NCBI GenBank assembly: GCA_046583315.1
Contig: JAYGCN010000059.1
Location: 1-11,826, forward strand
Origin: Candidatus Hydrogenedentota bacterium
GTDB lineage: Bacteria; Hydrogenedentota; Hydrogenedentia; Hydrogenedentales; GCA-2746185
Direction: 5' to 3'
Length of the DNA: 11,826 bases
The notes beneath the pieces are model-generated. The model did not search any database. It was not told the DNA's origin and saw nothing but the letters and a program-made list of their open reading frames with translations. This document shows positions 868-9,363 of this stretch, piece after piece. Within the stretch, counting starts at the first letter, position 1. Each line of letters starts with the position of its first letter. The position numbers were made by a program, and so were the translations under genes.

Positions 868-1698
868 TTAACTCCTCCACTTTCGCGTTTCAAGTGATCG
901 AAACGTGAGGAACAAGAAGAATCCGATGAACAGGAAATAGTAGGCGACGTCCGCTGGCTGGAAAATACCCTGGGCCATCTGCCGGGCATGCGCATCGATA
1001 GGCAATTCGAGTGCAATCGACTGAATACCGCCGTGCACAACGGTCACCACCGATCGTACACTCTCCGGCCAGGTCTCAGGAACGGTGATAGCATCTGGAA
1101 TCTTGTCAGAGAGAGTACCGATCATAAACAGAACGAAATACACGGCAAAGGTAACTGTGGCAGCCGTAATCTGCGTTTTGCACAGGGACGACACGAACAG
1201 GCCCATGCTCAGAAAGGCCGCGCCCATCAAGAAGAACGCAAGCAATCCGAACAGCAACACTTCTATCTCCACATCCACATAAAAATAAACGATCACCAGA
1301 TGAACACCGGTCGTAAGAATCATCAATCCGAGCATGGCGATGGCTGCAAAGTATTTTCCGAAGATGATGTCCCGATCACGCAAGGGGAGCGTATACAGCA
1401 TTTCGATCGTGCCCAGATTATGCTCCTCCGCAAGCAGTTTCATCGATATCAACGGGCCGATAAACATCATCATGAGACCGCAATAGACCATGTATTCGCT
1501 CAGGAAGGTTTCTTCGAAGTCGGGAATCGCAGCCAGTTCGTAATTCGCTGGTGTTTCCGTCATGAATCCGTACACGATAAACGAATAGGCAAAACCGAGC
1601 CCGGAAATCAATGCAAAGGCCCCCAGCACCACGTATCCAACCGGCGTGGAGAAGTACGATTTGAATTCGCGCTTAGCGATGATCCAGCTACTACCCAC
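868..1698 (-). CDS. ABC-2 type transporter permease (GldF-like)
   Basis: Motifs IAKREFKSYFSTPVGYVVL and SMKLLAEEHNLGTIEMLYTLP...IIFGKY, with about six TM segments. The likely start is GTG 1698, with GGAGG at 1709-1705; it overlaps the ATPase 3' end by 8 nt. The track start at 1746 is less likely. Confidence 0.92.
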   Translation of the reverse strand: MGSSWIIAKREFKSYFSTPVGYVVLGAFALISGLGFAYSFIVYGFMTETPANYELAAIPDFEETFLSEYMVYCGLMMMFIGPLISMKLLAEEHNLGTIEMLYTLPLRDRDIIFGKYFAAIAMLGLMILTTGVHLVIVYFYVDVEIEVLLFGLLAFFLMGAAFLSMGLFVSSLCKTQITAATVTFAVYFVLFMIGTLSDKIPDAITVPETWPESVRSVVTVVHGGIQSIALELPIDAHARQMAQGIFQPADVAYYFLFIGFFLFLTFRSLETRKWRS

Positions 1699-2416
1699 CA
1701 GCGACCTCCGCGTTCGTCGAAATCGATTCGATAAACAATTCTTCAAGCGTCTGCGACTTGGATAACTCCGAAAGTTTTTTCTCGGTAACGATTTTTCCCT
1801 CGTGCAGAATCATCACTCGATCACAGATCATCGAAACCTCGGGAAGAATATGGGTGCTCAGCAACACCGTGTGATCGTTCGCCAGATCCTTGATCATCTG
1901 TCGAATGCCCACGATCTGTTTCGGGTCCAGACCGACCGTCGGTTCATCCAGGATAAGGACTGGCGGGTTGCCCAATAACGCCTGCGCAAGACCCACACGC
2001 TGGCGATATCCTTTCGAAAGATTGCCGATGAGTCGAGATTCCATGTGCGACAGGCCACAGCGCTCCAAAACATCCGCCACTTCAGCACGACGTTTGGTGC
2101 GGCCAATGCCTTTGATTTCCGCGATATACATCAAATAACTCGAGACCACCATTTCAAGATAGAGTGGCACACTCTCGGGAAGATAGCCGATTCGCTTCTT
2201 CACTTCGAGGGCCTGGCGATGCACGTCAAAGCCCGCTACCGTTGCCGTGCCCGAGGTCGGCGGATGATACCCGGTCAATATGCGCATCGTGGTCGTCTTG
2301 CCCGCGCCATTGGGTCCAAGAAAACCCACGATTTCCCCCTGAGCAAGTTCAAATGAAATGTCGCGAACCGCCTCAAACGCTCCGTAGGTCTTGGTTAAGT
2401 GCTGGACATTGATCAC
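1691..2416 (-). CDS. ABC transporter ATP-binding protein (GldA-like)
   Basis: Walker A GPNGAGKTT, signature LSKGYRQRVG, Walker B VLILDEPT, H-loop STH. GTG start with GAGGTGAG upstream. 241 aa. Confidence 0.96.
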   Translation of the reverse strand: MINVQHLTKTYGAFEAVRDISFELAQGEIVGFLGPNGAGKTTTMRILTGYHPPTSGTATVAGFDVHRQALEVKKRIGYLPESVPLYLEMVVSSYLMYIAEIKGIGRTKRRAEVADVLERCGLSHMESRLIGNLSKGYRQRVGLAQALLGNPPVLILDEPTVGLDPKQIVGIRQMIKDLANDHTVLLSTHILPEVSMICDRVMILHEGKIVTEKKLSELSKSQTLEELFIESISTNAEVAGG

Positions 2417-2585
2417 GGGATACTCACCTCAGTTTCGAAACAACCGCACAGTGGCATAAAAGTACAGAAGCGGAAAAAAGTTCCCCTTTCCCCCTGCCTA
2501 TTAAGTCGGACACGCCTGGTGCCGATATTCCGTAAGTCTAAGCAAAGCACATGGTTTAACGCAAGCCGCAACCACTTTCGGGGAA

Positions 2586-2602
2586 TTGGCACGTAGTTTG
2601 CC
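2586..2602 (+). promoter_or_regulatory. sigma54 (RpoN) -24/-12 promoter
   Basis: TTGGCACGTAGTTTGCC matches TGGCAC-N5-TTGC exactly (GG 2588-2589, GC 2600-2601, 10-nt spacer). Predicted TSS is about 2613, about 45 nt before the small ORF. Confidence 0.75.
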
Positions 2603-2657
2603 TTAGCTTGGACACAAAAGTGACGCCGTTTGAGCCAGACTATGCCGAGAGGTTTAC

Positions 2658-2825
2658 ATGATGACTACGCAATGTTGCGTGTGCCGAAGATATCAAGTGA
2701 ACAAAAGCTGGAAACGCGTCGCCATCGTCGATTCCAGGATTAGTCACAGCTATTGTCCCCCATGCAAAGACAAAGTCATGAAGGAACTGGCTGAAAAAAG
2801 GAAGCCTACGCTGGCGAACCGATAA
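2658..2825 (+). CDS. Small (55 aa) putative zinc-binding protein with a CxxC...SHxxCxxC motif
   Basis: MMTTQCCVCRRYQVNKSWKRVAIVDSRISHSYCPPCKDKVMKELAEKRKPTLANR*. SD GAGAGG at 2647-2652 precedes ATG ATG (2658/2661), with a sigma54 promoter upstream and a hairpin 18 nt after the TAA. It is shorter than any ORF in the track. Confidence 0.8.
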   Translation: MMTTQCCVCRRYQVNKSWKRVAIVDSRISHSYCPPCKDKVMKELAEKRKPTLANR

Positions 2826-2843
2826 TATCCCCAAGCAATAAAT

Positions 2844-2876
2844 AACGGCCCTGCCACATTTCGTAGCAGGGCCGTT
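2844..2876. terminator. Intrinsic terminator of groEL, probably bidirectional
   Basis: Perfect 11-bp stem AACGGCCCTGC / GCAGGGCCGTT, extendable by 3 pairs on the minus strand, where ATTTATT follows. It lies between the convergent stops of the small ORF (2825) and groEL (2910). The plus-strand U-tract is weak. Confidence 0.85.
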
Positions 2877-2909: not shown

Positions 2910-4538
<1,629 letters not shown>

Positions 4539-5103: not shown

Positions 5104-5337
5104 AGAGTGTCCCAAAGACAAGGTTTCGGCCGTTATCAAAATTTTATCCTTCCTGCTTATATATCTAACTCCCTGCTGTAATTAACCTTAGCTATGGCCT
5201 CAGCAAACTCCAAAATCTTGATCTTTAAGCGAAAGACTGGCATAGTACCCACAAGTGCTTTGTAACGTTCGCATTCATTGCTCTTTACGGATATGCGAAC
5301 ACTCTGTCGACGTGTCATCGAACATGAAAGTTGGTGT

Positions 5338-6117
5338 ATGGAACAGTACGATTTAGATTCAGGTCAAGGGTTTGAACAAGTTGACGCCGATGCCGTGTGC
5401 CAGCAATGTGGCACCGTCAACGAAGAAGGCACGCTGCTTTGCAAGGTCTGCGGAAATAACCTGCGCGATCAAAGGAATCAGAGAATTGCTCAGGGCGCAG
5501 GACCAGAACTCATCGGAGACGGTCGAAGTAAATTTCAGATGCTCACCGGTCTGCTCGTCGCTTTCGGCATCCTGATTATTTTCTATGTCGTCTGGAATAT
5601 CGATAATTTCGAATCCATGTTAGTCGAATCACTTTCACAAACCAATGCCACGACCGACCGCAATGTTTGGACCGGTGGTAATGCGTCGATGTACGACGAG
5701 ATGTTGCTCGACCTCATCGAATTCCCGACGCCGGACAACGTTCGGCAGGCCGCATTGAGTAACCCTCAAATTGAAACGACCTACAACGGGCGCTACCTGC
5801 TTCTGTTTCCTGGCGAATTGGATGCCAGTCGAATCGTGGGCGAAGCCAATCTGCAACGCATCGGTGAGCGCATCCATTTCGTATTCAAGGCGAGCAACGG
5901 AGGCGCCGAAATTCGTGGTTATGCGATGTTGGAGTCGGTGGAGGAAGGTGAACTACCACACCCCATCGTTCGCCGTACGGCAGAAATCCAACTCGACGGT
6001 TTCAATTTTGACGGCATAGGCGTATCGACGCTGGCACCGGCGGGCGGCCATAACATCGTCGCCAAGCGTGACCACGACGACCAACAATGGGAAGTGCTCG
6101 CCTACCGCGTACCGTAG
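5338..6117 (+). CDS. Hypothetical single-pass membrane protein with an N-terminal zinc ribbon
   Basis: CQQCGTVNEEGTLLCKVCG (CxxC-x10-CxxC), then one TM helix (MLTGLLVAFGILIIFYVVWNI) and an acidic soluble C-terminal domain. The start is probably ATG 5338 (259 aa) but is uncertain. Confidence 0.85.
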   Translation: MEQYDLDSGQGFEQVDADAVCQQCGTVNEEGTLLCKVCGNNLRDQRNQRIAQGAGPELIGDGRSKFQMLTGLLVAFGILIIFYVVWNIDNFESMLVESLSQTNATTDRNVWTGGNASMYDEMLLDLIEFPTPDNVRQAALSNPQIETTYNGRYLLLFPGELDASRIVGEANLQRIGERIHFVFKASNGGAEIRGYAMLESVEEGELPHPIVRRTAEIQLDGFNFDGIGVSTLAPAGGHNIVAKRDHDDQQWEVLAYRVP

Positions 6118-7156: not shown

Positions 7157-8188
7157 ATGGGATCATGTTTTGCATGCGGAGAAGACTTGCTGTCATGGGT
7201 TCGCCCATTCAATCCAATGCAGCTGGTCGGGTGCAAGAAATGCCTGAACCTTTCACTGCTTTCATGGGCGGAAGATACCGCAACAGTACAACCGCTCCCG
7301 GAGTGTCCGACATTAGGCACCTTAGCCCCCAGGGGTTCGGTCATGGCCGACATCATGAGCATCATACCGGAACTCATTCCAGAACTGCCGATCTTGGCAG
7401 AAATTCCACAGCGTGTCGTCGCGACTGTTCACGATCCCATCGCTTCGATTCAAGACGTTGTGCAAATTGTTGAAGAAGATGCTGTGCTTTCCACCAAGAT
7501 TCTCAGCGTCGCCAACAGTGCCTATTTTGCAACCGTCAGCGAGATAGGCGATCTATCCACCGCGTGCAGTCGACTCGGCATGCGTGCACTGGCGAACATT
7601 GCCCATACCGTGGCCAGTGCCAACCAATAGAAATCGCCGAACCCGCAAGCCCGTATGCTGATGGAGCGGTTATGGAAACATGCCGTCGCCACGGCCCACT
7701 GCACCGAGACCATCGCGACCACGGTAAATCTCGGCTCGAATCTCCCCTACATGGCAGGATTGATGCACGACATCGGTAAGGCCGTTATGGTCGATGCCAT
7801 CACGACACAATATACGGGGAACGTCGGGCGCCTCAAAGAAGCACCGGATGTATTGGCCAGAGCAATCGATCCTTTCGCGCCTCTGGTCGGCTTGCACGTT
7901 GCACAACACTGGAAACTTCAGGGCGAATTGCTCATAACAATATTTTACACGCAAGATCCCGACGCGACCGTTAGCGAAACATGCAAAACACTCGCTCACT
8001 GCGTACGACTCGCGAGCGATATGGCGGAGGCAAAAGGATATGGCGTGTCTGAAACCGCCCCAGAAATTGCGAACGACCACCCTTCAATCGAAAAACTCCG
8101 CATCATGCCAGAGCAGTTCGAAACGATGTCGGCAGACCTCGACGAGATACTCGACTCCGTCGTTGGCGCATACGGATCGCTGGGTTAG
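7157..8188 (+). pseudogene. Zinc-ribbon + HDOD domain protein, copy 1, interrupted by an in-frame TAG at 7628-7630 (pseudogene or sequencing error)
   Basis: Track ORFs 7157-7630 and 7655-8188 are in the same frame. HDOD motifs: LPIL, D-x2-LSTKILSVANSAYF, A-x2-RLG, LWKHA, YMAGLMHDIGK, HWKL, VRLASD. The TAG aligns with Tyr (NQYKS) in the paralog. Read-through length is 343 aa. Confidence 0.88.
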
Positions 8189-8333: not shown

Positions 8334-9363
8334 ATGAGTCTGTGTTTTGCCTGTGGACACGATATGCTGGATTCAATTCGACCGACAAGGGTCAATCAAG
8401 TAGTCGGGTGCAATCAGCGCCTGAACATATCAAGAATCGAGTGGCAAGACGATACCATGAGCATTGAACCCATTGTCGTGTTCCCACCCATCGCAGAATC
8501 GGTTTCGCCCGACACCATCATGGCCGAAGTACTCGACAACGTACCCGATGCCATTACGCATCTCCCCGTACTGAATGAAATTCCCCAAGAAGTCGTCTCG
8601 ATGATTCACATCACTACGATTCCTATTTCAGACGTAGTGAGCGTCATCAAAAAAGACCCTGCCCTGTCAACCAGCATCCTCAGCATGGCCAACAGTGCGT
8701 TCTATGCCACCGTCACAGAAATCACGACCTTCCCACTGCATGTAGCCGGTTGGGCGCACGCGCGGTTTCCAATATCGCCAATACCCTGTCCTGTTCCAAT
8801 CAATACAAATCAAAAGACCCCGCAGCACGCAAATTCATGGAGTCCCTCTGGAAACATGCCATCGTCACGGCCCACTGTTCCGAGGCGCTTGCCCTCAAAT
8901 TTGGTATGGAAGTAAACTGGCGTTTATCGCCGGACTCCTCCACGACATCGGCAAGGTCGTTCTCGTGGACATCATTACGACGCGATATGCCGATGCGGCC
9001 GGGCGACTGGTCGCGAAACCCGAAGTGTTGCTCAAAGCCATCGCGCCGTTTTCATCAATCGTAGGCCTCCACGTGATACAACATTGGAAATTGGCCAACG
9101 AACTGACGTTTTCAACCCTGTACGTTGAGCACCCAAATTCCACGCCCCACGCGACCTGTATTGATCTTGTTAATTGTGTGCGATTGGCGAGCGATATTGC
9201 CGATCAAACCGGTTTCACCGTATTGGGAGAGTCAAGCAAAGGATTTGAGGACCATCCCTCCCTTGAGCACTGCGGTGCAACAATGGAAGAACTCGAAGCG
9301 CTTAAAGGCGAAATGGAAGAACTGATAGCCTCCGTGATGGGCGTGGTGGGCAGCGTCGCCTAA
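8334..9363 (+). pseudogene. Zinc-ribbon + HDOD domain protein, copy 2, with two 1-nt deletions (about 8731 and about 8915)
   Basis: SD AGGAGG precedes ATG 8334. Three consecutive frames join to give ...DPALSTSILSMANSAFYATVTEITT/PTACSRLGARAVSNIA...LWKHA...GMEV/LAFIAGLLHDIGKVV...HWKL...VRLASD. 1030 nt plus the 2 missing nt gives 1032 nt, identical in length to copy 1. Confidence 0.88.

Follow-up and report, generated by a model that had tools for sequence, protein, structure and literature searches.

CsfB/Gin of Bacillus subtilis is an anti-sigmaG and anti-sigmaE factor (PMC5890618, PMC4383634). These papers describe it as a treble-clef dimer that resembles the ClpX N-domain (PMC5890618) and report expression of csfB under sigmaF and sigmaK (PMC4383634). 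The PDB entry for Fin, 5msl, bears the title of an anti-sigma-F factor. Zinc fingers are also known as outputs of signalling proteins: PMC5847659 presents HalOD2, an archaeal response-regulator output with two CxxC motifs 20-25 residues apart, together with TackOD1. Among flagellar proteins, PMC3930126 describes an RpoN- and FliA-dependent pair of flagellins, FlaB and FlaA, in Campylobacter jejuni. As for Hydrogenedentota, the accessible text of a genome paper (PMC10866078) says nothing on motility of the phylum, and the literature searched, mostly outside subscription journals, yielded no description either of the protein family reported below or of flagellar control in this phylum.

The locus under study lies in a stretch of 11,826 nt of a Hydrogenedentota genome, hereafter the window. 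A plus-strand gap is bounded there by a divergent ABC-2 operon, whose first gene encodes an ABC ATPase (1691-2416, minus strand; start at 2416), and by the convergent groEL gene (2910-4535, minus strand; stop at 2910). The ABC operon serves as a synteny marker; groEL lies beside the small gene in some relatives only. The gap contains a sigma54-type -24/-12 box, TTGGCACGTAGTTTGCC (2586-2602, plus strand), with a predicted start site near 2613, a Shine-Dalgarno sequence, GAGAGG (2647-2652, plus strand), an open reading frame (2658-2825, plus strand) and a hairpin (2844-2876), all four at the positions given in a preliminary description of this DNA. That description had proposed a self-contained unit encoding a stand-alone zinc-finger protein of 55 amino acids. 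The reading frame is real, and counted from 2658 it has 55 codons; because the one methionine of the homologues aligns with Met2 (31 of 33 sigma54-type copies), translation probably starts at the ATG at 2661, 8 nt from the Shine-Dalgarno sequence, to yield 54 amino acids. AGGAGG- or GAAAGG-type sites are likewise found 5-10 nt before the methionine in homologues.

Homologues were found in 53 of 61 relatives. The ratio dN/dS is 0.18 over four genera and 0.17 over eight, and the small gene is under purifying selection. One frame-breaking change was detected in a close relative, genome G001, in which an invariant tryptophan codon is replaced by TAG, and it is a single case among 100 loci. We thus consider it virtually certain that the small reading frame is a real, stand-alone gene, as originally proposed. 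The interrupted copy (L071:2455-2617) is a sigma54 copy from the same genus; G001, which is 84% complete, yielded FliA and flagellins but no rpoN, fliF or flgB.

The hairpin is strong on either strand (z -4.5 on the plus strand and -4.9 on the minus strand, with 0 of 200 shuffles equally stable). Since its T-run lies on the minus strand, the hairpin is first of all an intrinsic terminator of groEL, rather than the small gene's own terminator as had been proposed. In two closely related metagenomic loci that keep this gene order (L288 and L290), however, T-runs flank the hairpin on both sides, and therefore it may be shared and end the transcript of the small gene too. The same two loci show other peculiarities: a 120-nt leader between the sigma54 box and the start, with a common G-rich, hairpin-like stretch and a CCGATA/TCGATAG box that is possibly a second, sigma28-type promoter, and, in L290, a serine in place of the last cysteine. 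Elsewhere in the window, two tandem genes for HDOD-domain proteins with an N-terminal CxxC (7157-8188 and 8334-9363) are either pseudogenes or assembly errors: an in-frame stop interrupts the first, and the second runs across three frames. A zinc-ribbon transmembrane protein of 279 amino acids (5278-6117), which matches no family above cut-off, overlaps the start of ftsY.

The protein begins with MxVQCC and has the layout CxxC-W-SHxYCPxC followed by a C-terminal helix. Residues C6, C9, W18, C33 and C36 are invariant, and Q5, C7, S29, H30, Y32 and P34 nearly so; the conserved residues include five cysteines and one histidine across some 35 positions. The family comprises 401 short proteins at E<=0.001, and 2409 clusters at 50% identity. 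When 94 free members were profiled, no Pfam, NCBIfam or PDB match that would name the family was found, and none reached curated level, among the best 25 of 33 Pfam families and the 21 NCBIfam families at E<=0.1. DUF2197 (YlaI; 4 of 94 members, best E 0.005) and BCAM0308 (15 of 94, best E 8e-4) were matched below curated level. Both share the CxxC...CxxC-helix pattern with the small protein, as does the flagellar-operon protein YvyF (TIGR03826), which was not among the 21 NCBIfam families matched. Nor did a CsfB/Gin or Fin profile appear among the best 25 of 33 Pfam or the 21 NCBIfam families (E<=0.1), and there was no PDB sequence match. Judged from these profiles, the 54/55-aa protein seems to found a family that has no name.

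A confident structure model of the free protein (pLDDT 83) presents two hairpins and a helix; the fold may be treble-clef-like, and zinc would be held by C6, C9, C33 and C36. Weak fold matches include Fin and the zinc-binding domain of ClpX, both among seven by VIA, and also the zinc sites of PerR and Zur. The ClpX zinc-binding domain (PDB 2ds5) and the insect ZAD domains (7ppp, 7poh) are dimeric treble clefs that form parts of larger proteins; their fold scores against the small protein are, however, at noise level, and they have no sequence relation to it.

The TGGCAC-N5-TTGC motif matches exactly at 2586-2602 only, across the whole window. If up to one mismatch is allowed, the window holds two matches against 1.04 expected; taken alone, the sigma54 box is within chance for a window of 11,826 nt. 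It is conservation across orthologues that places the box and the reading frame beyond chance. Hydrogenedentota have two syntenic stand-alone paralogues, one divergent from the ABC operon and the other from mazG. When loci were sorted by nothing but their neighbour, 35 were ABC-divergent, 47 were divergent from a short mazG-like gene and 18 lay elsewhere; four loci with masked or short leaders were dropped before promoters were counted, leaving 34 ABC-context and 45 mazG-context loci. With patterns that were drawn after inspection of the first 20 loci, the sigma54 pattern was found within 160 nt in 33/34 ABC-context loci (0.22 expected) versus 0/45 mazG-context loci, while the sigma28-type pattern was found in 40/45 mazG-context loci (0.6 expected) versus 1/34 ABC-context loci. 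A sigma54 box is also present in 37 of 39 syntenic metagenomic loci, which come partly from the same organisms as the genome set. RpoN is encoded by the genome (E 7e-63), along with 11 Sigma54_activat matches (E<1e-53). The sigma54 promoter of the preliminary description is thus borne out by its conservation upstream of homologues and by the presence of rpoN.

A sigma70-like promoter of the divergent ABC operon, TTGCGT-N18-TAGACT (2535-2564, minus strand), lies outside the unit of the small gene and back to back with the sigma54 box. A pattern for it, defined only after data inspection, occurs in 24 of 32 syntenic loci, where 0.6 would be expected, and in most of these it lies 20-24 nt away from the sigma54 box. 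Similar boxes persist in the non-flagellated genomes G038, G031 and G064, where the sigma54 box and the reading frame are lost. The near-constant spacing of the two promoters (window 2535-2602) raises the possibility that the polymerases at these sites interfere.

The genome carries both paralogues, with the twin at C299:17506-17688. The consensus of sigma28 promoters is TAAA-N15-GCCGATAA. When 222 sites in this genome were ranked with a matrix derived from the boxes that twins carry in other genomes, fliD took first place, flgM the second and a flagellin the third, while flgK was sixth, the genome's own twin eighth and a second flagellin thirteenth; FliA and flagellins are encoded by the genome. 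These ranks identify the twin's box, by its sequence, as a putative FliA (sigma28) box. The arrangement is reminiscent of the Campylobacter flagellins, in that each tier of a sigma54-then-sigma28 hierarchy has its own copy; here, however, the pair consists of 6-kDa cytoplasmic fingers encoded outside flagellar clusters.

The twin appears to tolerate changes that the sigma54 copy does not: the histidine is kept in 33/33 sigma54 copies, and is replaced by tyrosine or phenylalanine in 7/44 sigma28 copies. In the genus of the genome studied, the twin (C299:17436-17688, locus L113) no longer has the Ser-His pair, nor the second cysteine of CC; in genus g8, a tyrosine stands in place of the histidine. 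Genus g22 (L010, L025, L076) has a third, longer paralogue of 79-82 amino acids at a different locus, preceded by a palindrome, ATTACAAC-N-TTGT(A/C)AT, and a degenerate sigma54-like box. The replacement of the histidine bears on the proposal that the protein is a zinc or redox sensor, or a buffer, whose link with flagella is incidental. The five cysteines and the histidine clustered in a short stretch, and the PerR and Zur zinc sites among the weak fold matches, would suit such a role; but no metal or oxidative-stress genes are found as neighbours, and the two copies are preceded by two independent types of flagellar promoter, the small gene also by an enhancer common to flgB (see below). We therefore regard this proposal, whose sensor part was already raised in the preliminary description, as weakened to the point of being very improbable.

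A sigma54 box does not by itself tell the regulon: not only flgB but also amtB, a PilZ gene and a gene of pilin type turn up among the sites found with a matrix of such boxes. A dyad search of small-gene leaders revealed a palindrome, CGG(C/A)A-N5-T(G/T)CCG, which is a candidate sigma54 enhancer. In the window it occupies positions 2471-2485, 117 nt upstream of the -24 GG; in orthologues it is mostly found at -122 to -126 from the sigma54 box. Both spacings agree with the roughly 80-150 nt typical of an upstream activator site. With a matrix trained on 26 leaders, the window excluded, the held-out score of this site was 15.1 bits, the top of 444 sigma54-pattern sites in the genome. At a threshold of 9 bits, the palindrome was present before 29 of 34 further sigma54 copies and before 2 of 45 sigma28 twins. 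Among 29 usable flgB loci, 27 had a sigma54 box, and a palindrome of at least 9 bits lay upstream of it in 24 of these 27 genomes (2.7% in shuffles), at distances of 82-133 nt and phylum-wide (L368-L397). Among 22 amtB loci, 18 sigma54 boxes were scored and none had an upstream palindrome. As the palindrome is common to the small gene and flgB and absent at amtB, the activator of the basal-body operon is predicted to control the small gene as well. A piece of counter-evidence is that the palindrome still scores 10-13 bits in two of six non-flagellated ABC leaders. Two candidate activators for the palindrome were tried, and both failed. The palindrome also occurs, with 13.8 bits, ahead of a LysM/M23 peptidase gene that has a sigma54 box (C30, L422), and in the window it sits beyond the sigma70-like promoter, inside the leader of the ABC operon.

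The distribution of the family was examined in 135 Hydrogenedentota genomes. A family call was a strong match (E<=1e-10), weaker matches behaving as fused modules (see below), and a genome was considered flagellated if at least one of FliA, flagellin or FliF was found (110 of 135). Strong matches were present in 108 genomes: 107/110 flagellated versus 1/25 non-flagellated, although the 25 are not independent: a single family accounts for 21 of them, G038 and G059 represent separate losses, and G026 is 63% complete. Independent losses of flagella and small gene are therefore few in the sample. The gene rpoN is retained in 22 of the 25, and the ABC operon and mazG likewise persist in most of them. 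In all six non-flagellated genomes inspected that keep the ABC operon (G023, G031, G038, G043, G059 and G064), the sigma54 box and the reading frame are gone; in a seventh, the leader of the ABC locus is not assembled. Box and reading frame are also gone in 5/5 non-flagellated loci inspected that keep mazG. In G038, mazG now faces mpl, the gene that follows the small gene in congeners. Among the flagellated exceptions, the fetched locus of G118 is cut off by the end of the contig just as the box begins; in G002 the mazG copy is missing and the ABC locus is not assembled; and G062 belongs to a distant family without the gene order. Genome G079 keeps both copies and has no flagellar marker.

Altogether, the enhancer shared with flgB, the sigma28-preceded twin and the co-loss with flagella make it highly probable, on comparative grounds, that the small gene belongs to the flagellar regulon. 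The preliminary description had seen in the sigma54 promoter a sign of tight signal control; the promoter is conserved, but the signal would be the flagellar cascade, which that description missed.

Beyond Hydrogenedentota, sigma28-like boxes precede a stand-alone copy at four loci of Planctomycetota, and both genomes tested are flagellated and have FliA. Stand-alone copies are also found in Patescibacteria, in one Kiritimatiellia genome and in 11 viral contigs; flagellar boxes are absent from the copies inspected in these groups, and FliA is absent from the three such genomes tested. The flagellar link is therefore lineage-bound and no property of the module itself. In the Patescibacteria-type loci L129, L168, L174 and L189, the stand-alone copy occupies a conserved site devoid of flagellar boxes, ahead of a membrane protein gene and of a gene that, by eye, looks like pheS. 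The viral contigs (L277-L287) carry module relatives mostly as short stand-alone reading frames, and phages may use the module to act on a host partner.

The preliminary description had pointed out a likeness to a module at the C-terminus of response-regulator and PAS proteins, and this proved correct. A profile search of longer proteins gave 156 matches at E<=10 among 7999 candidates scored; most of the best 120 of these 156 were REC, PAS, GAF, CHASE or TPR proteins or membrane sensors that end in the module, and a CheR-PAS protein ending in it was also seen (L241). Comparison of the free and fused profiles with hhalign gave a probability of 99.2% (E 2.8e-19). The genome itself has one REC fusion, with a stand-alone Hpt gene immediately behind it (C207:66558-67551, L115). 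The fused Cys4 module (consensus LxGxLPICxxCKKIRDxxGxWxxxExYxxxxxxAxFSHGxCPxC), for which no database entry was found, shares the CxxC, the tryptophan, the SH-x-x-CPxC and the terminal helix with the free protein. The latter, by contrast, stands alone under flagellar promoters instead of being part of a sensor, begins with MxVQCC and lacks the short helix between the tryptophan and the Ser-His pair. This helix is present in the model of the genome's REC fusion, in which a continuous helix (residues 138-176) runs from REC into the module, and is absent from the model of the free protein. The helix and the preceding coiled coil, traits of the fused module, are not found in the free form, which the models portray as a shortened variant. 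HalOD2 is like the Cys4 module in being a small predicted zinc finger that serves as output of a receiver domain, but is confined to a few halobacteria and has a HalX-like N-terminal part; none of 15 fused or 94 free members matched it in Pfam among the matches listed.

Fused modules were found in 98/110 flagellated versus 9/25 non-flagellated genomes. One interpretation of this association is that the free protein is a decoy that pairs directly with fused modules and damps REC, PAS or GAF signalling proteins during motility; the coiled coil ahead of the fused module suggests a dimer, and the genome has the REC fusion with its adjacent Hpt gene. However, in 11 flagellated genomes the free protein occurs and no fused module was found, including G045 (100% complete), G035 (96%) and G055 (93%). 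Competition with proteins that carry the same domain, as first proposed, is thereby weakened, and we deem it improbable. The persistence of free copies in genomes where no fused copy was found makes a common downstream partner likelier than poisoning of the fusions.

Another interpretation, unlikely in our opinion, is that the free protein has departed from its signalling origin to become a flagellum-specific accessory: a chaperone for assembly or export, a factor that binds the motor or CheY, or a regulator that controls flagellin translation by binding RNA. The tight co-loss with flagella, a need at two stages, the basic residues together with the invariant Trp, His and Tyr, which could bind RNA or a peptide, and the helix lost from the free form all speak in its favour, and the genome encodes zinc-finger flagellar accessories of YvyF type, albeit below cut-off. 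Yet the genes lie outside flagellar clusters, the fused modules of non-flagellated genomes retain the same motif residues, and copies exist in lineages without FliA. The YvyF-like matches are three (C22:11081-11467, C226:2893-3267 and C171:6418-6756), all below the curated cut-off, and the one on C22 is outside any flagellar operon.

The interpretation that we prefer is that the free protein is a four-cysteine finger, predicted to bind zinc, that represents a free copy of the C-terminal module of signalling proteins. In these, a coiled coil that follows REC, PAS, GAF, CHASE, CheR-PAS or TPR leads into the terminal module, which takes the slot usually filled by GGDEF or a kinase; because it occupies an output slot and is too small for an enzyme, it is likely to be a protein-binding output that engages a target once the sensor is on. 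The small gene would be switched on by sigma54 from the enhancer of the flgB operon and the twin by sigma28, if transcription does start from the predicted boxes. Free copies would then supply the output by transcriptional timing, without upstream control by phosphorylation or ligand, in a first basal-body stage along with the rod genes (sigma54) and again, after hook completion, along with the filament genes (sigma28). That free and fused forms share this protein-binding output, and hence a partner, is a plausible proposal to which we would grant slightly less than an even chance.

Similarity with CsfB/Gin and Fin suggests a more specific scenario: the small protein would bind a sigma factor, a sigma54 activator or RNA polymerase, and sharpen the switch from middle (sigma54) to late (sigma28) expression. 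All are small four-cysteine fingers with a helix, of equal size and with a CxxC...CxxC-helix layout, deployed, in the present case by prediction, in a staged cascade under two sigma factors, and the seven weak VIA matches include Fin and the zinc-binding domain of ClpX. Differences are that two paralogous genes, not two promoters on one gene, are involved here, that the cascade is flagellar instead of sporulation-related, and that the Cys4 module also exists fused to sensors. Besides, the module also lives in genomes without FliA. We consider this scenario unlikely, too. By analogy, the small protein may work like the known small zinc-finger modulators of sigma cascades, and we do not assign it to any of them.

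Returning to the shared-output interpretation, a broader and decidedly speculative version, which we hold possible though doubtful, is that the Cys4 module serves as a signalling currency, widespread but so far unrecognised, that has a single conserved target. In Hydrogenedentota and some Planctomycetota, free copies would be wired into both flagellar tiers as a new checkpoint linking assembly to this target, which might for instance be RNA polymerase, a phosphorelay or c-di-GMP control. If so, the free copies would open a first physiological approach to an output domain present in thousands of sensor proteins.

The small gene is likely to encode a new motility regulator that would act by binding a partner protein, and thus a new, unnamed component of the flagellar cascade, detected by means of cis-elements and co-loss rather than gene neighbourhood. 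The data also provide a first outline of flagellar control in Hydrogenedentota, with sigma54 and an enhancer palindrome predicted for flgB, and sigma28 for fliD, flgM, flgK and the flagellins. The free version, a 6-kDa protein, lends itself to expression, purification and bait experiments, and its link with motility may give a first indication of what a very common but undescribed output domain of bacterial sensors does.
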